A stretch of 8,349 nucleotides of DNA from a virus (taxonomy: Monodnaviria > Loebvirae > Hofneiviricota > Faserviricetes > Tubulavirales > Inoviridae), in the IMG/VR virus record IMGVR_UViG_2718218102_000001; one strand, 5' to 3'. Under the pieces are notes generated by a model. It did not search any database. It had not been told where the DNA came from and worked only from the letters and a program-made list of their open reading frames with translations. Position numbers and translations under genes: made by a program. Positions within the stretch are counted from its first letter, which is position 1; each line of letters opens with the position of its first letter. Shown piece by piece: positions 1 to 8,349 of the stretch.

Positions 1-69
1 TGGATAGCGGGTAGGTGCGTGAGCCCTGCTCGCTATCCATCAAATGGACATTATTGATTGGGGTAACTA

Positions 70-2440: not shown

Positions 2441-3493
2441 GTGATCGATTGGCTTACCGGGATTTTCCCTTGCACACACAAACCGCTTCCGGCGGGGAGT
2501 GTTGTCAGCGTTGATGCTGACGGTGCAATTGAGTGGGAAACCGTTAAGCGACTGACTGTTCGCGGCTCGCATGAAGCAACGATGAAAGTACGATCGATAG
2601 GATCTAATGGCGAAGGTAAAGCGACACATTTGTACATTGATGGTAATCCGTCCAAGTTTTTGCAGGGGCATTCTGTTGTTGGGTCGGATGATATACAAGG
2701 GCTCATGTTGACGGTCTATGCCAGGATTTTATCCTTATTGAATATTCCTCATGATTTAGCGTCTTATAAAGCTGTTATAGCAGGTCAGTATAAAATTTCA
2801 CGTGTTGACATTAATTACATGTATTCATTATCTACGCTAGAAAATGTCAGATCATGGCTTTATGCCGCCGAATTTAAAGCTAAAACACGCCATGGTCGCG
2901 CATGTGGGAAAGGCGGTACAGTTTATTTAGGTAAAAACTCCCGTCGATGGAGTCTGAAATTTTATTCAAAATATGATGAACACGTTTCGGGTAAAAAAGG
3001 GCACCAGATAGCCGAAGATTTTGTACGAGCCGGGTTACTGGACTGGACGAAAGATAAATTACGTATTGAATTAACATTAAGAACAACTGAGCTTATTGAT
3101 TTAAATTTAACGCTTGGCGCTAACTGGAATATGAAAACACCACGTCAATTATTCTCTGAATATGTAGGGAGAATAGAAATGAATCAGAATGCTATTTTAA
3201 GTGATGAAAAAATAACGAAACTGCCAAGAAAAATACAGTCAACTTATTTACTTTGGAAACAAGGGGCTAACATGAAAGAAATGTTACCTCATAACACTTT
3301 TTATCGCCATAGAAGAGAATTGCTTTCGTTCGGTATCGATATTAATTTCTATTGTGATTCACCAGACTCTAATAACGTTGTTCCGCTAATAAGAACGCTG
3401 GAAGCCAAGCCAGTGGAAATCCCCTTATGGATTTATGAGAAAGGTTTTATTTTCGATTACAACCGTATTTCGCACGCCAGTAGCTGGCATTAA
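2441..3493 (+). CDS. gII: replication initiation (rolling-circle nickase) protein, Ff gene II-like (about 350 aa)
   Basis: N-terminus (M)IDWLTG resembles Ff pII MIDMLVL; KFLQGHSVVG resembles KVLQGHNVFG; C-terminal NNVVPLIR resembles NNVVPLVR (M13 recalled from memory). GTG 2441 chosen over GTG 2399 because of the GAGGA RBS. Stop TAA 3491-3493. Confidence 0.75.
   Translation: MIDWLTGIFPCTHKPLPAGSVVSVDADGAIEWETVKRLTVRGSHEATMKVRSIGSNGEGKATHLYIDGNPSKFLQGHSVVGSDDIQGLMLTVYARILSLLNIPHDLASYKAVIAGQYKISRVDINYMYSLSTLENVRSWLYAAEFKAKTRHGRACGKGGTVYLGKNSRRWSLKFYSKYDEHVSGKKGHQIAEDFVRAGLLDWTKDKLRIELTLRTTELIDLNLTLGANWNMKTPRQLFSEYVGRIEMNQNAILSDEKITKLPRKIQSTYLLWKQGANMKEMLPHNTFYRHRRELLSFGIDINFYCDSPDSNNVVPLIRTLEAKPVEIPLWIYEKGFIFDYNRISHASSWH
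3179..3493 (+). CDS. gX: gene X-like product from an in-frame internal start within gII (104 aa)
   Basis: In-frame ATG at 3179 preceded by AGGGAG with 7 nt spacing. Context IEMNQNAILSDEK aligns with the Ff pX start region DSMNIYDDSAVLD. Confidence 0.5.
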   Translation: MNQNAILSDEKITKLPRKIQSTYLLWKQGANMKEMLPHNTFYRHRRELLSFGIDINFYCDSPDSNNVVPLIRTLEAKPVEIPLWIYEKGFIFDYNRISHASSWH

Positions 3494-3504
3494 AGGAAAG
3501 TAAT

Positions 3505-3822
3505 ATGTCTAATTATGGTCTTTTCGTTAAGGGTAAAATGTTGGGAGCCCGCCAACGTAATAAAGTTAATGGTCAGGGCTATTATAATGAAATTGGTATT
3601 GGCCTTGAAATACCTGATGGTTTTGGTGGTACAAAGCAGGATCAAATTATTATTCGAGTTTCTCAGACTCTCGTTAACGCAGGTCTAATGAACCAGGCGA
3701 ATGCTTTCATTGGGAAATTAGTTCAAATTCCTGTCTATGTCCGTGCGTGGTCAATGGAGGGTAGGGAAGGTGTAACTTATAATGTTTCTTCCGATGGTGG
3801 CATCGCAGAGATCAAAGGTTAA
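3505..3822 (+). CDS. putative ssDNA-binding protein in the gene V position (105 aa)
   Basis: ATG 3505 with AGGAA RBS at 6 nt spacing, 11 nt after the gII stop and 2 nt before gVII. Assignment is by position only; I see no obvious similarity to Ff pV. Confidence 0.5.
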   Translation: MSNYGLFVKGKMLGARQRNKVNGQGYYNEIGIGLEIPDGFGGTKQDQIIIRVSQTLVNAGLMNQANAFIGKLVQIPVYVRAWSMEGREGVTYNVSSDGGIAEIKG

Positions 3823-3824
3823 AT

Positions 3825-3911
3825 ATGGACGATGTTATTCAAATTTTGATAGCGTCTGGCATCGTTATTTCTTTTGGCCTCGGCGCGATTACTGCGGGGG
3901 TCTTTCGTTAA
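3825..3911 (+). CDS. gVII: minor coat protein pVII-like (28 aa)
   Basis: Not in the ORF track (too short). Hand translation gives MDDVIQILIASGIVISFGLGAITAGVFR, hydrophobic with a GxxxAG motif like Ff pVII. Stop TAA 3909-3911 overlaps the next ATG (TAATG). Confidence 0.6.
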   Translation: MDDVIQILIASGIVISFGLGAITAGVFR

Positions 3912-4006
3912 TGTATATCGTTTATTTCTTCGGGGCTTATACCTTTGGTTTTGCCCTTTTCTATGCGGTCGGTTCATTTAAATCATTTTCTGACCGATTA
4001 ATGTAA
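3911..4006 (+). CDS. gIX: minor coat protein pIX-like (31 aa)
   Basis: ATG 3911 overlaps the gVII stop. Product MYIVYFFGAYTFGFALFYAVGSFKSFSDRLM is hydrophobic and ends RLM, like Ff pIX. It corresponds to the C-terminal part of track ORF 3782..4006. Confidence 0.6.
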   Translation: MYIVYFFGAYTFGFALFYAVGSFKSFSDRLM

Positions 4007-4025
4007 CCTTAATGGAGTTATTCCT

Positions 4026-4268
4026 ATGAAAATTCTGTCTACTGTTAAATATAAAGTTGCTCTGGCTTCAACTGCGCTTTTTGTTTCTGCAAGTTCTTTT
4101 GCGGCTGAAGGCGCTACAGGTGGTACTGATTATGCAGGTCAGGCAATGGATGCTTTGTTGACTCAGGCAAATGATCTCATTGGTAAAGTATGGCCTGTTG
4201 TTGTGGCTGTGGTTGGCGCTGGGCTTGCCATTCGTATTTTCAAAAAATTCTCTTCAAAAGCGGTTTGA
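4026..4268 (+). CDS. gVIII: major coat protein pVIII precursor (80 aa)
   Basis: GGAG RBS 8 nt upstream. Signal peptide ending SFA|AEG, acidic N-terminus, hydrophobic core, basic C-terminus [12 protein letters not shown] typical of Ff/IKe-class major coat proteins. Confidence 0.9.
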
Positions 4269-4277
4269 ATTTCACTC

Positions 4278-4300
4278 AGGGGCACTCGTTGCCCCTTTAT
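4278..4300 (+). terminator. rho-independent terminator after gVIII
   Basis: AGGGGCA (4278-4284), loop CTCGT, TGCCCCT (4290-4296), then TTATT. Ff phages have a strong terminator at this position (established knowledge). Confidence 0.65.
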
Positions 4301-4314
4301 TAAAGCGGGTTACT

Positions 4315-5640
4315 ATGAAAAGGAAAATATTAATTCTTTCCGCTGTCCTCATTTCTCCTTTTTCACATGCTGAGTCATGGGAAAGCATTACTAAATCCAC
4401 TTATCAAAGCTCTGCCTACGCTGAAAGTAAGCAAATAACCAATCAGGATGGCTCTAAGTCAACGGTTTACTATATTGATGCTGCTATGCAGGCCTCCGCT
4501 TGTCAGGGTGCTAAATCCAGTGCTCAGAGTGTATTTACTCAGGTTAAACCAACTTATGAGGGTATCTGGCCTGATTCTGAATTCCGTCTTGTTTTTACTG
4601 GTGATTGTACTTACAGCGATTCACCAGGGCAGAAGGATAAATATTGGTCTTTAACGGCTTATATTGTTGGTGATATTCAGCGTTCTGTTCCTGATGAAAA
4701 ACCTACTGACCCGACACCAGAAGAAATTTGTGAAGCGAAGCCGCCAGAAGAAGGTGTATTTAATAATGTTGATTCATATGATGGTGGTCGTTATATCTAC
4801 TATAACGGCTGTGAATATGAGGCTACTGGTGTCATTGTTTGTCAGGGTGATGGTACTGTTTGCGCTGCAACATGGAAGCCTACAGGTACTGTAGCTGACC
4901 CCTCTGATAAACCCTCAACCCCCCAAAATGGTGGTGGTGAGTCTGGCGGTGGTGAGTCTGGCGGTGGTGAGTCTGGCGGTGGTGAGTCCGGTGGCGGTAG
5001 TTCTGGCGGTGGTGAGTCCGGTGGCGGTAGTTCTGGCGGTGGTGAGTCCGGTGGCGGTAGTTCTGGCGGTGGTGAGTCCGGTGGCGGTAGTTCTGGCGGT
5101 GGCTTTAGTGGTTCCAGTCTTTCTAAAGGTGATATTCAGTCTGCTATCGAAGGTGCTTCACCCAAAATAGCCAGCGATATTCATGATAAATTAACGGAGA
5201 AAGACACTTCATCAGATGATAAAAAAAATGCCGATGAACAAACTAGGAATAATATAAATCGTCTTGACGATTCCATTAACAATCTTACGCGGGGGGCTGG
5301 CCGTTTTGCTGACCCTTCAGGTGGTGATTCTCGTTATGGAAAGGGCGACTCTGAATTAGATGGCGCTTCTACTTTGGCTGATTCTGAATTGGGAATTGAA
5401 AAGGATTCTCACGGTGCTTTATGGGAAGCATTTTTAAATAAAGGTGCTATGCTGCCTAATTTACCCAATGGTAACGGCTGCTCTGATTTTATTATTTTTC
5501 CCGGAGAGGTTTATCAGATTGATATTGGTTGCGATAAATTACTGACTATTAAAGATGTTCTTTCATGGGTTTTTTATTGCCTTACGTTCTGGTATGTCTT
5601 TACTTCTTTAACTTCATTGCTTCGCAAAGGGGGTGAGTGA
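4315..5640 (+). CDS. gIII: minor coat / adsorption protein pIII (about 441 aa)
   Basis: Start set at the in-frame ATG 4315 giving signal peptide [19 protein letters not shown]; the track ORF begins upstream inside gVIII. Cys-rich N-terminal domain, long Gly-rich linker, and a C-terminal anchor resembling the M13 pIII C-terminus (CDK...YVF...LRxK). Stop TGA 5638-5640 overlaps the gVI ATG. Confidence 0.9.
4936..5100 (+). repeat. in-frame tandem repeat, 11 copies of a 15-nt unit, encoding the Gly-rich pIII linker
   Basis: GGTGAGTCTGGCGGT x3 (4936-4980), then a 30-nt unit GGTGAGTCCGGTGGCGGTAGTTCTGGCGGT x4 (4981-5100). Encodes alternating GGGES and GGGSS. Confidence 0.9.
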
Positions 5641-5981
5641 TGCCTTTATTATTAGGTATTCCTGCATTGTTGCGTTTTCTTATTGGTCTTGTTCCTTTGT
5701 TTATTGGCTATGTGGCGAGTTTTTTAGCTCGACTTGCTACCAGAACAGGATTAATCGCCTTTGCATTGGTCGCATTAATTACAACAACTGTTACGCTTTT
5801 AATGCAGTACCTTGCTGAGGTCATGTATAACGGTTTACCTGCTGATTTCTCCCATTTAATGGCGTCTGTATTGCCTGACCATTTTCAGGCGTGTGTTAAC
5901 GTTATTATGGTTACTCGTATCAGTGTTTTTGTTTTCGATTTAAAACAAAAATTTCTTGATTATGCAAACAGGGTGATTTAA
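5640..5981 (+). CDS. gVI: minor coat protein pVI (113 aa)
   Basis: [17 protein letters not shown]... resembles M13 pVI MPVLLGIPLLLRFLG... (recalled). ATG 5640 overlaps the gIII stop (TGATG); the track used GTG 5637. Stop TAA 5979-5981 abuts the gI ATG. Confidence 0.85.
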   Translation: MPLLLGIPALLRFLIGLVPLFIGYVASFLARLATRTGLIAFALVALITTTVTLLMQYLAEVMYNGLPADFSHLMASVLPDHFQACVNVIMVTRISVFVFDLKQKFLDYANRVI

Positions 5982-7076
5982 ATGGCGGTTCATGTAGTAA
6001 CAGGCAAATTAGGCTCAGGCAAGACACTTGTTAGTGTTTCCAGAATACAGGAAAGACTTGCTAAGGGTTGTCCTGTTGCCACTAATCTTGATCTTAAATT
6101 GCATAATATGCCTATGGTTGGGCGTTATGCGAAAAAAACGCGCGTTATTCGCATTCCTGACAAGCCTTCATTAAATGATTTACTTGCTATTGGTATTGGG
6201 AATACATCTTACGATGAATCCCGTAATGGCCTCCTTGTACTTGATGAATGTGGTACTTGGTTTAATTCCCGCTCATGGGGTGATAAAGACAGACAACCTG
6301 TTATTGACTGGTTTTTACATGCCAGAAAATTAGGCTGGGATATTATATTTTTGATTCAGGATATTTCGATAATGGATAAGCAAGCTCGTCTGGCGCTTGC
6401 TGAGCATGTTGTTTATTGTCGCCGTTCAGATAAATTAAACATTCCTTTTGTTGGCTCCATTATGAATTTGGTTTCAGGGGCGCGATTTTCTTTACCAAAG
6501 GTACACTTTGGCATTGTCAAATATGGTGATAACGTTAATTCAATTACTGTTGATAAATGGATATACACCGGAAAATCATTATATTCCGCCTACAATACAA
6601 AACAGGTTTTTACTGATAACTATCCGCATGGTGCTTATTCGCTTTTGCCACCATTTATCACGCACGGTCAATTTTCTGTTCACAGAGGATTTAATTATTA
6701 TATGCGCCTCACGAAAATTTATTTTCGCAAATCGAACCGTCTTATATTAATGCTTTCTTTTTTGGCGCTGGGGCTTGCGCTTGGTTTCTGGCTCCAGTCT
6801 GGAAAGAATGTTGATGAAATCTCCGCTATTAAATCTGCTTATGCTGAACAGGCGAGGGCGGTAACGCCTGATTCGTCCAGTGACTTACCCCGACTTTCTA
6901 TTAATTCTTTTTCACAACTTGGCTTTGACGTTTCCGTTACGTTTGTTGATGCAAAAGGTACGAAATATCAGTATTTTGATTTGATTAAAGATGGTTATTC
7001 CGTTGATATTAAAGATGCCTGTCGTGTTGTTATTAGAAAAGGCCGTTATTTACAGACTGTTATCTGTCAGGAGTAA
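5982..7076 (+). CDS. gI: assembly ATPase pI (Zot-like), 364 aa
   Basis: Walker A motif GKLGSGKT at residues 8-15. Long colinear similarity to M13 pI (MAVYFVTGKLGSGKTLVSV..., LLVLDECGTWFN..., FLHARKLGWDIIFL...; recalled). C-terminal membrane segment. Confidence 0.9.
   Translation: MAVHVVTGKLGSGKTLVSVSRIQERLAKGCPVATNLDLKLHNMPMVGRYAKKTRVIRIPDKPSLNDLLAIGIGNTSYDESRNGLLVLDECGTWFNSRSWGDKDRQPVIDWFLHARKLGWDIIFLIQDISIMDKQARLALAEHVVYCRRSDKLNIPFVGSIMNLVSGARFSLPKVHFGIVKYGDNVNSITVDKWIYTGKSLYSAYNTKQVFTDNYPHGAYSLLPPFITHGQFSVHRGFNYYMRLTKIYFRKSNRLILMLSFLALGLALGFWLQSGKNVDEISAIKSAYAEQARAVTPDSSSDLPRLSINSFSQLGFDVSVTFVDAKGTKYQYFDLIKDGYSVDIKDACRVVIRKGRYLQTVICQE
6702..7076 (+). CDS. gXI: pXI-like product from an in-frame internal start within gI (124 aa)
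   Basis: In-frame ATG at 6702 (pI residue 241, the same position as the M13 gene XI start), just before the TM segment LILMLSFLALGLALGFW. AGAGGA lies 12 nt upstream. Confidence 0.5.
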   Translation: MRLTKIYFRKSNRLILMLSFLALGLALGFWLQSGKNVDEISAIKSAYAEQARAVTPDSSSDLPRLSINSFSQLGFDVSVTFVDAKGTKYQYFDLIKDGYSVDIKDACRVVIRKGRYLQTVICQE

Positions 7077-7083
7077 TATTATT

Positions 7084-8349
7084 ATGCGCTCTGTTATTGT
7101 TGCTTTTTTATTTGCCTGTTCATTCTGCGTTTCTGCTGAAACTGTTAATTTAAACAATTCATCTGTTCGCTCATTTGTTCAGTGGTATTCTTCAAAAACT
7201 GGCAAGCCTGTTATTGTTAATCCTGATATTAAAGGAAACGTAACCGTATTTAATGCTGATGTTAATCCAACAAATATTGATGATTTCTTTAAGTCTGTTC
7301 TGAATGCTAACGGTTTTGTCATGCTTTCTGGCAATCCTGCGGTAGTCTCTTTGCCGTCTAAATTACCTTCACAGATGGTTTCGGATTCCGATGATTCTGA
7401 TAACCAGTCTTATGATACTTTTCCTTCTGAGCCATCTTACCAGCCAGTACCTGTGGCGCTTACGGTCAGAAATTTTAAGCTGACAAAAGTTAGATCGTCC
7501 GATGTTCAGCAACTGATTAAAATTTATCTTGATTCTAATGGTGGTGGTAATGTCGTGGATTATCCAGGCAATAACTCGCTGATTGTTTCTGCGCCTGACG
7601 AGCTGCTGCCGGTTCTGTCCGATTTTATCAATTCTGTGGATGTTGCCCGCGATCAGGTTCTCATTCAGTCGCTGATGTTTGAAACCAGCTTGTCTGATGG
7701 CGTTGATTTATCGTTTGCGGCAGGTTCTGCATCCGGTCATAAGGTTGCGGGGGGCTTTAATACTTCTGCACTGGGTAGCGCTCTTTCTACGGCGGGCGGT
7801 TCTTTTGGTATTTTTGATGGTAACGTGTTGGCGCTGTCTCTGCGTGCTGTCCAGAGTAATTCACGCTCTAAGGTGATTTCAACGCCGCGTATTCTTACTC
7901 AGTCTGGTCAGACTGGTTACATTTCCGTAGGTAAGAATGTGCCGTTTATCACCGGAAAGGTAACGGGCGAATCTGCCGGGGTAAATAATCCGTTTCAGAC
8001 TATCGAGCGTCATGATGTTGGCGTTTCTCTCAAGGTAACGCCTGTTGTCATGGGTAACGGGCAACTAGTTCTGACTATCGACACTCGCGCTGATTCAATC
8101 AGCAATGATGATCAGGCATCCGATATTATTACTAATCAGCGCCAGATTCAGACGACAGTCCAGATTAAGGATGGTCAGACGTTGTTATTGGGGGGGCTTA
8201 TCGATTCATCGTTTAGCAATGCTGAGCGTTCAGTTCCAGTTATAAGTAAAATTCCTCTTATAGGCTGGATTTTCAGTAGCAAGGCAGACAGCAATGAACA
8301 GCGTATTATGTATATTTTGCTTACAGCACATATCATTCGTCCACTTTGA
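7084..8349 (+). CDS. gIV: outer-membrane secretin pIV (about 421 aa)
   Basis: Start set at ATG 7084 giving signal peptide MRSVIVAFLFACSFCVSA|ET; the track ORF starts upstream inside gI. Strong similarity to M13 pIV throughout (NVPFITGKVTGESAGVNNPFQTIER, DGQTLLLGGL, SKIPLIGWIFSS). Stop TGA 8347-8349 is the window end. Confidence 0.9.
   Translation: MRSVIVAFLFACSFCVSAETVNLNNSSVRSFVQWYSSKTGKPVIVNPDIKGNVTVFNADVNPTNIDDFFKSVLNANGFVMLSGNPAVVSLPSKLPSQMVSDSDDSDNQSYDTFPSEPSYQPVPVALTVRNFKLTKVRSSDVQQLIKIYLDSNGGGNVVDYPGNNSLIVSAPDELLPVLSDFINSVDVARDQVLIQSLMFETSLSDGVDLSFAAGSASGHKVAGGFNTSALGSALSTAGGSFGIFDGNVLALSLRAVQSNSRSKVISTPRILTQSGQTGYISVGKNVPFITGKVTGESAGVNNPFQTIERHDVGVSLKVTPVVMGNGQLVLTIDTRADSISNDDQASDIITNQRQIQTTVQIKDGQTLLLGGLIDSSFSNAERSVPVISKIPLIGWIFSSKADSNEQRIMYILLTAHIIRPL

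Follow-up and report, generated by a model that had tools for sequence, protein, structure and literature searches.

The window analyzed here is the whole stretch of 8,349 nucleotides (nt) of the IMG/VR virus record IMGVR_UViG_2718218102_000001. Its positions 2441–8349, together with a hairpin that wraps from the end of the window onto positions 1–49, almost certainly make up the core, complete and apparently functional, of a temperate filamentous phage that belongs to the UPφ group. Members of this group are Lineavirus-like inoviruses, integrate at dif in the chromosome, and occur in Escherichia coli, Salmonella, Klebsiella, Citrobacter and Yersinia enterocolitica; whether to place them in the genus Lineavirus is for taxonomists to decide. 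The UPφ viruses, their gene order and their relation to the phages IKe and I2-2 and to YpfΦ were already published in 2020 (Shapiro & Putonti 2020, Virus Evolution 6:veaa030, PMC7307601), and the module is nearly identical to public prophage sequences, so that the element is a known one. A first-pass annotation, made from the letters alone, had classified it as an inovirus of the enterobacterial Ff/IKe class. This holds for the core, but the element as a whole is a temperate prophage of the dif locus fitting UPφ and not a classical episomal phage. As for the outcomes that would have spoken against that annotation, the best matches do not lie outside Inoviridae and no core gene is broken.

Relatives of the window in public genomes

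We looked for the window in public genomes and found at least 80% of it in 44 of 5,426 complete E. coli genomes, with an identity of 97–98.7%. The module at 2441–8349 is 98–100% identical to the prophages of these 44 genomes, a comparison that serves as a proxy for one with the UPφ901 reference, and 99.4–100% identical to ECONIH2 and to loci L009 and L010, the number of GGGES units in gene III (gIII) excepted. The prophage copies adjoin hipA, as a single copy in UM146 and in tandem in ECONIH2, at a locus that corresponds to dif on the E. coli map and in what is described for UPφ. Moreover, a circular replicon of 7,938 bp from Salmonella is 98.7% identical to the window, and public collections contain exact copies of all nine core proteins, with entry names that refer to E. 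coli, Salmonella, Klebsiella, Citrobacter and Y. enterocolitica. When the two ends of the window are joined, they form a string of 80 nt that has an exact counterpart both in the UM146 prophage and in the Salmonella circle; the window is therefore a circular genome opened at the stop codon of gene IV (gIV). Among phages, the best match at the nucleotide level was I2-2 (67.8% over 70% of the region), and megablast against 50,697 phage records returned only about 190 nt of gIV, with no close relative deposited as a phage. The sequence GGTGCGCATAATGT at 768–781 equals the first 14 nt of the E. coli dif; a full E. coli dif (with up to 3 mismatches) is absent from the window, which contains a composite dif-like site only.

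According to the passages of the UPφ paper drawn on here (PMC7307601), UPφ viruses are closest to I2-2 and IKe, have gII and gV more than 85% identical to those of YpfΦ, vary in the GGGES repeats of g3p, and carry two unknown open reading frames (ORFs) after gIV, in the former intergenic region, as well as reverse-strand ORFs beside a partial dif (approximately its first 15 bases). They are also described there as integrating in tandem at dif and as yielding DNase-resistant phage DNA in culture supernatants, while gXI, the packaging signal and the forms of the gene junctions are not treated in the same passages. The window and the UPφ viruses have in common the core genes I–X in Ff order, a YpfΦ-like gII/gV pair, GGGES repeats, a partial dif, tandem copies and the host range.

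Gene inventory, junctions and small genes

Nine ORFs translate without frameshift or internal stop on the + strand, from 2441 to the last base of the window, and eleven frames are intact when gX and gXI are counted. The gene set, order and coordinates proposed in the first-pass annotation are thus all present, and the order on one strand, II-(X)-V-VII-IX-VIII-III-VI-I-(XI)-IV, is identical in the annotated records of M13, IKe, I2-2, If1 and PEar1. The features are listed below (aa, amino acids):

2441–3493, +, gene II, rolling-circle replication initiator pII; 350 aa, GTG start with GAGGA 8 nt upstream; I2-2/YpfΦ type
3179–3493, +, gene X, in-frame internal start at pII Met247; 104 aa, predicted to be expressed
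3505–3822, +, gene V, single-stranded DNA-binding protein; 105 aa; I2-2/YpfΦ type; Pfam PF17426 (7e-51)
3825–3911, +, gene VII, leading-tip minor coat protein; 28 aa; PF19978 Inovirus_G7P_2 (3e-11)
3911–4006, +, gene IX, leading-tip minor coat protein; 31 aa; phrog_28333 (8e-9), no Pfam family
4026–4268, +, gene VIII, major coat protein precursor; 80 aa; PF19199 (5e-19), phrog_1646 (5e-33)
4278–4301, +, terminator-like hairpin between gVIII and gIII, GGGGCA-CTCGT-TGCCCC then TTTATT; putative function
4315–5640, +, gene III, attachment and termination protein; 441 aa, repeat linker; phrog_4150 (4e-275)
5640–5981, +, gene VI, trailing-tip minor coat protein; 113 aa; DUF5455 (7e-9), phrog_1944 (1e-43)
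5982–7076, +, gene I, inner-membrane assembly ATPase; 364 aa; Zot (3e-40), phrog_1675 "morphogenesis (protein I of M13)" (9e-177)
6702–7076, +, gene XI, in-frame internal start at pI Met241; 124 aa, predicted to be expressed
7084–8349, +, gene IV, outer-membrane secretin; 421 aa, signal peptide; Secretin (6e-43), GspD N0, Secretin_N; phrog_1012 "assembly (protein IV of M13)" (2e-153)
8339–8349, +, 5' arm of the packaging (morphogenetic) signal hairpin; runs over the gIV stop and on into window 1–49
1–49, +, packaging signal hairpin, loop and 3' arm; outside the coordinates of the first-pass annotation

All nine products matched a Pfam or PHROG family. Using blastp, E values against Lineavirus proteins ranged from 1e-10 (pIX) to 0 (pIV), and against M13 we obtained matches for pVIII, pIII, pVI, pI and pIV. 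The RefSeq starts of gII and gIII in the E. coli prophage copy UM146 are the same as those given here. A Walker A motif, GKLGSGKT, and the motif LLVLDECG can be read directly in pI, and reading of pVIII predicts a 26-aa signal peptide followed by a mature protein of 54 aa. The hairpin between gVIII and gIII folds at −12.2 kcal/mol, compared with −15.9 for the stem-loop annotated at the same position in IKe and −16.1 for that of M13. No Rfam family reached the gathering threshold on either strand, and consensus scans were uninformative: they found 10 promoter-like sites versus 20.9 in shuffled sequence and did not list the gVIII terminator hairpin.

We then compared the gene junctions. As had been stated, the window reads TAATG at VII/IX (3909–3913, overlap of 1 nt), TGATG at III/VI (5638–5642, overlap of 1 nt) and TAAATG at VI/I (5979–5984, abutting). 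The spacings, in nt with negative values for overlaps, are as follows:

VII/IX: window −1 (TAATG); I2-2, IKe and PEar1 −4 (ATGA); M13 −4 (ATGA); If1 −4 (ATGA)
III/VI: window −1; I2-2, IKe and PEar1 −1; M13 +2; If1 +2
VI/I: window 0; I2-2, IKe and PEar1 +1; M13 +1; If1 −1
I/IV: window +7; I2-2, IKe and PEar1 +2; M13 −23; If1 −20

The idea that these junctions match the Ff paradigm is therefore right for their compactness but not for their exact form, as M13 has ATGA, a 2-nt spacer and a 1-nt spacer at these three places, and of the three forms only the overlap of 1 nt at III/VI is also present in IKe, I2-2 and PEar1. For a wider comparison we used 80 loci from IMG/VR with a pI alignment, 28 of which make up the UPφ-like and Lineavirus-like groups. 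The TAATG form, together with a 28-aa pVII and a 31-aa pIX, was present in 21 of 21 UPφ-like loci and in 0 of 7 classical Lineavirus-like loci. The TAATG junction is specific for the UPφ clade, while Ff, If1 and classical Lineavirus use ATGA.

Genes VII and IX had been reported as tiny genes absent from the program-made ORF track. For gIX this is not strictly so, considering that it is hidden inside a 74-aa ORF (3782–4006) that opens at an upstream ATG in gV. Homologues of both genes lie between gV and gVIII, both intact, in all 28 UPφ-like and Lineavirus-like loci. Compared with diverged UPφ-like loci, gVII and gIX showed a synonymous divergence (dS) of 0.19–0.93 and a nonsynonymous divergence (dN) of 0–0.076, with dN/dS of 0.03–0.08. 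In the gIX stretch, only the gIX frame is free of stops and has an excess of synonymous change; the other two frames contain stops and have no such excess. Intactness in 28/28 loci and the dN/dS values indicate that gVII and gIX are coding, and chance ORFs were rejected on the same grounds of conservation and dN/dS. The pVII sequence is MDDVIQILIASGIVISFGLGAITAGVFR, 70–74% identical to the pVII of IKe, I2-2 and PEar1, and that of pIX is MYIVYFFGAYTFGFALFYAVGSFKSFSDRLM, 53–60% identical to their pIX; global identities are given below.

We also noticed that RefSeq annotates gVII ("tail virion protein G7P-2") and not gIX in UM146, ECONIH2, ERP001 and the Salmonella circle, which are all the copies inspected; the stretches concerned are window 3911–4006, L001 7222–7337, L002 4847–4962, and loci L089 and L088. 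The exact pIX sequence is recorded on 24 contigs only, versus about 1,000 for the neighbouring proteins. The passages of the UPφ paper used here state that genes VII and IX were recognized as genes inconsistently (PMC7307601). RefSeq systematically misses gIX in UPφ prophages, and the coordinates and conservation evidence given here can be used to mend the annotation.

The in-frame starts of gX and gXI, which had been called conserved, proved to be so. In M13, pXI starts at Met241 of pI (348-aa pI, 108-aa pXI). Met241 of the window pI (6702) and Met241 of M13 pI, whose only methionines are at 1, 169 and 241, share one alignment column, which is invariant in alignment A1. The codon aligned to the gXI start is a start codon in 80/80 relatives (79 ATG and 1 GTG), down to a pI identity of 51%, and the GTG case preserves initiation and not methionine. 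The predicted pXI has a basic N-terminus followed by a hydrophobic segment. Concerning gX, its start at pII Met247 (3179) is preceded by GGGAGA 7 nt upstream and is ATG in all 20 loci with this pII type; gene X of I2-2 is annotated from the same pII residue 247, and the 100-aa profile phrog_17464 matches pII residues 247–346. Translation would be expected from both starts.

Several points nevertheless weigh against reading the window as a functional UPφ phage. Its membership of the group is argued from a match to every described feature and from near-identity to prophages of the same locus, UPφ901 (7,560 bp) being compared by description only. The window has another number of GGGES units in gIII, and it is longer, with 8,349 bp versus 7,560 bp, owing to a different reverse-strand cargo (873–1630), which makes it a cargo variant and not UPφ901 itself. 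The Shine-Dalgarno-like AGAGGA of gXI is 12 nt from the ATG, farther than usual. Moreover, our observations comprise the integrity of the genes, their homology, selection, conservation of the starts and of a hairpin, and chromosomal as well as episomal forms, while the formation of virions and the expression of pX, pXI, pVII and pIX are predicted from sequence.

One alternative is a decaying, non-functional prophage remnant, whose Ff-like ORFs would be out of use. The element is mostly found integrated in chromosomes, and damaged relatives do occur, such as ERP001, with a truncated attachment protein and a shortened pI, and one genome with IS1 in gII. On the contrary, all eleven frames of the window are intact, its tiny genes are under strong purifying selection, its internal starts and packaging hairpin are conserved, and a free circle of 7.9 kb exists in Salmonella; in addition, the consulted passages on UPφ report DNase-resistant phage DNA in supernatants (PMC7307601). 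Altogether we regard a remnant as highly improbable.

Assembly cassette and replication module

As the first-pass annotation had described pI, pIV, pVI and the pIII C-terminus as clearly Ff-like, we compared the assembly proteins with those of several phages. Global identities are:

pVII: I2-2 69%, IKe 62%, PEar1 70%, M13 35%, If1 39%
pIX: I2-2 52%, IKe 55%, PEar1 58%, M13 22%, If1 31%
pVIII: I2-2 51%, IKe 60%, PEar1 63%, M13 42%, If1 41%
pIII: I2-2 54%, IKe 54%, PEar1 53%, M13 25%, If1 22%
pVI: I2-2 53%, IKe 52%, PEar1 56%, M13 35%, If1 30%
pI: I2-2 64%, IKe 65%, PEar1 65%, M13 54%, If1 54%
pIV: I2-2 72%, IKe 69%, PEar1 70%, M13 50%, If1 49%

With 51–72% identity to I2-2, IKe and PEar1 versus 22–54% to M13 and If1, the genes from pVII to pIV are Lineavirus-like rather than Ff-like: the four products named above are indeed homologous to their Ff/IKe counterparts, but closer to those of IKe and I2-2. 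The attachment protein has the same affinity. Its PF21443 pilus-binding domain (22–125) precedes the PF05357 TolA-binding domain (135–176), just as in IKe and I2-2 (PF21443 at 21–125, then PF05357 at 135–177), while in M13 and If1 PF05357 lies at residues 1–65 and PF21443 was not matched. By segments, pIII is 47–64% identical to IKe and I2-2, with 68–73% in the linker, and 50–73% identical in every segment to IKe alone. The whole of pIII having the IKe/I2-2 architecture, its N-terminus is divergent relative to Ff only. Finally, the packaging hairpin, located directly after gIV, folds as DNA at −24.5 kcal/mol when the window ends are joined, and its core GGGTAGGTGCGTGAGCCCTGC matches the annotated morphogenetic-signal stem-loops of IKe (6141–6196) and I2-2 (2260–2330).

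The phages I2-2, IKe and PEar1–6 (the last from Erwinia) resemble the window in gene order, pIII domain order, the 1-nt III/VI overlap and the core of the packaging hairpin, I2-2 also in its type of pII, pX and pV, IKe and the PEar phages having Ff-type pII and pV. They differ from it by lacking a dif-like site and accessory ORFs, by their ATGA form of VII/IX and by a pVII of 29–32 aa and a pIX of 33 aa. The Ff phages (M13, f1 and fd; genus Inovirus) and If1 share with the window the gene order, gXI at Met241, a terminator after gVIII and a secretin of their own. Unlike the window, they have the opposite order of pIII N-terminal domains (22–25% identity), pII and pV with only 20–22% and 18–21% identity, and overlaps at gIX/gVIII and gI/gIV, neither of which exists in the window.

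We considered whether the window could simply belong, as a strain, to one of the classical Lineavirus species that do not integrate (IKe or I2-2), given that these are its best phage matches and share its gene order, pIII architecture and packaging signal. Protein identity is only 51–72%, however, and megablast similarity amounts to about 190 nt of gIV at most. The genome of the window exceeds theirs by 1.5 kb and has six additional ORFs as well as a dif-like site; window-type elements are found at the chromosomal dif locus; and its VII/IX junction and its pVII and pIX lengths are unlike those of all seven classical Lineavirus-like loci. Identity with IKe or I2-2 is refuted at the species level, and we give it hardly any probability.

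By analogy with Ff and IKe, assembly and infection by the UPφ phage of the window would proceed as follows. The replicative form would be nicked by pII, with pX made from the internal start, and pV would coat and sequester the progeny single strands. The export channel would consist of the pI/pXI complex, an ATPase of the inner membrane, and of pIV, the secretin of the outer membrane, and assembly would start with pVII and pIX on the packaging-signal hairpin. During extrusion of the DNA, pV would be exchanged for pVIII, and the filament would be capped and released by pVI and pIII. In infection, the N-terminal domain of pIII would bind a pilus and its second domain TolA. With VII/IX and III/VI overlapping by 1 nt, VI and I abutting, and spacers short, translation of neighbouring genes may be coupled. 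UPφ phages occur in uropathogenic E. coli, and for their receptor the IKe-type receptor domain offers a concrete hypothesis.

The replication proteins have another kinship. The domains of pII are Phage_CRI (3e-70) and G2P_X_C (5e-29), with a match to phrog_702 (1e-118), and its identity is 86% to YpfΦ, 55% to I2-2 and 20–22% to M13, IKe and PEar1. Similarly, pV is 93% identical to that of YpfΦ, 38% to that of I2-2 and about 18% to those of M13 and IKe; it belongs to family PF17426, as in I2-2, M13 and IKe having PF02303 and the pV of If1 matching no family. Replication of the Ff/IKe type is characterized by a pII of about 410–420 aa and a PF02303 pV, and the window has instead a pII of 350 aa and a PF17426 pV. 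As I2-2, an accepted Lineavirus, departs from this type in the same manner, membership of the Ff/IKe class (Inovirus, Lineavirus and Infulavirus) is compatible with the result.

When genomes were scanned with pII, the YpfΦ prophage of Yersinia pestis came up. UM146, the dif locus and the layout had raised the suspicion that the window might be a phage of the CUS-1/YpfΦ type, the other filamentous prophage that integrates at dif in extraintestinal E. coli and Y. pestis. In both, the transcription units are opposed, the dif site is partial and cargo lies at either end; besides pII (86%) and pV (93%), they share the candidate origin hairpin described below and the attP-region noncoding blocks 377–482 and 742–863 (88–94% identity). 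The structural and assembly genes are nevertheless unrelated, a distant secretin excepted: tblastn against the Y. pestis YpfΦ locus (E <= 0.01) gave no match for pVII, pIX, pVIII, pIII, pVI or pI, and only 27% for pIV. The consulted text on UPφ likewise gives less than 20% identity with CUS-1/YpfΦ outside genes II and V (PMC7307601). Identity with CUS-1/YpfΦ is thus rejected for 3825–8349 and holds for the replication module only; for the phage as a whole its probability is negligible.

Results therefore indicate two evolutionary modules in the UPφ core, a replication module at 2441–3822 of the I2-2/YpfΦ type and an assembly cassette at 3825–8349, plus the packaging hairpin, of the IKe/I2-2 type. 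The complete morphogenesis module, which had been placed at 2441–8349, accordingly stands for 3825–8349, and the cassette should be delimited from gVII to gIV plus the packaging hairpin, and not from gII. In loci L021, L022 and L026, a window-type assembly cassette (pI 94–95%, TAATG junction) follows a different pII (375–396 aa), accompanied in L026 by an Ff-type pV, and in L021 and L022 pIII is only 50% identical. From these loci, replication modules and the receptor protein would seem to have been exchanged recently. Cassettes of close relatives having pI at 94–100% and TAATG occur with three replication sets or more: pII and pV of the I2-2/YpfΦ type; this pV combined with another pII, of 375 aa; and an Ff-type pV combined with a pII of 396 aa. 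The module break lies at or just upstream of the gV/gVII boundary. It is possible, although we hold this tentatively, that gVII–gIV and the packaging hairpin form a portable cassette with fixed joints, that the window is a UPφ cargo variant produced by ongoing module shuffling and not a separate lineage, and that the IKe-like N-terminal domain of pIII predicts a conjugative pilus as receptor.

Noncoding blocks and cargo outside the core

We also looked at the part of the window outside the core. Some 370 nt upstream of gII, with a reverse-strand ORF on either side, positions 2043–2074 contain the hairpin ACGTGCAGT-GTAGGTAAT-ACTGCACGT followed by TTGT. It is almost invariant in all elements with this pII type, including I2-2 (intergenic, 2667–2699), L034, YpfΦ and a Klebsiella spallanzanii prophage, and is a candidate for the plus-strand origin or pII nick site. 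Another hairpin, at 380–424, is followed by a T-run and lies just after the first ORF downstream of gIV; the stretch 380–470 folds at −22.7 kcal/mol, and the block 377–482 shares 88% identity with YpfΦ and with a Klebsiella prophage. This hairpin may be a minus-strand origin or a terminator.

The dif-like site in the region 768–863, GGTGCGCATAA-TGTTCGACTCG-TTATGTTGAAA, has a centre of 11 nt rather than 6, and a GC-rich hairpin (801–837) comes after it. The stretch 772–863 recurs with 90–95% identity on about 400 mostly conjugative plasmids. On two inspected IncF-type plasmids its copies are unannotated and adjoin small cargo genes, for example one for a protein of the STM4504/CBY_0614 family, carried as cargo by some UPφ prophages too. 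The region 768–863 may represent a cassette bounded by Xer sites and common to filamentous prophages and plasmids.

Between gIV and the dif-like site, the ORFs 70–378 and 496–729 have no Pfam family, and conserved copies of them exist in UM146, in ECONIH2 and in the Salmonella circle; we likened them to h1 and h2 of UPφ by position only. On the minus strand, 873–1630 contains two ORFs (110 and 137 aa) and is the part of the window that the E. coli prophage copies do not cover. This is a variable cargo slot, occupied in UM146 and ECONIH2 by an ORF of 159 aa together with a zinc-binding protein of the ECs_2282 family, and in the Salmonella circle by a death-on-curing toxin. The accessory ORFs gave nothing above threshold in Pfam and PADLOC, with only a weak REase_II match (E = 0.002) for the 110-aa ORF.

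Finally, two contigs have unexpected host labels. Contig L090, from a metagenome-assembled genome (MAG) labelled Candidatus Nanosynbacter, carries a UPφ prophage with proteins 98–100% identical, and L094, from an Aerococcus MAG, carries a related gII/gV pair. Both labels most likely reflect binning contamination with Enterobacteriaceae DNA and not the true host.

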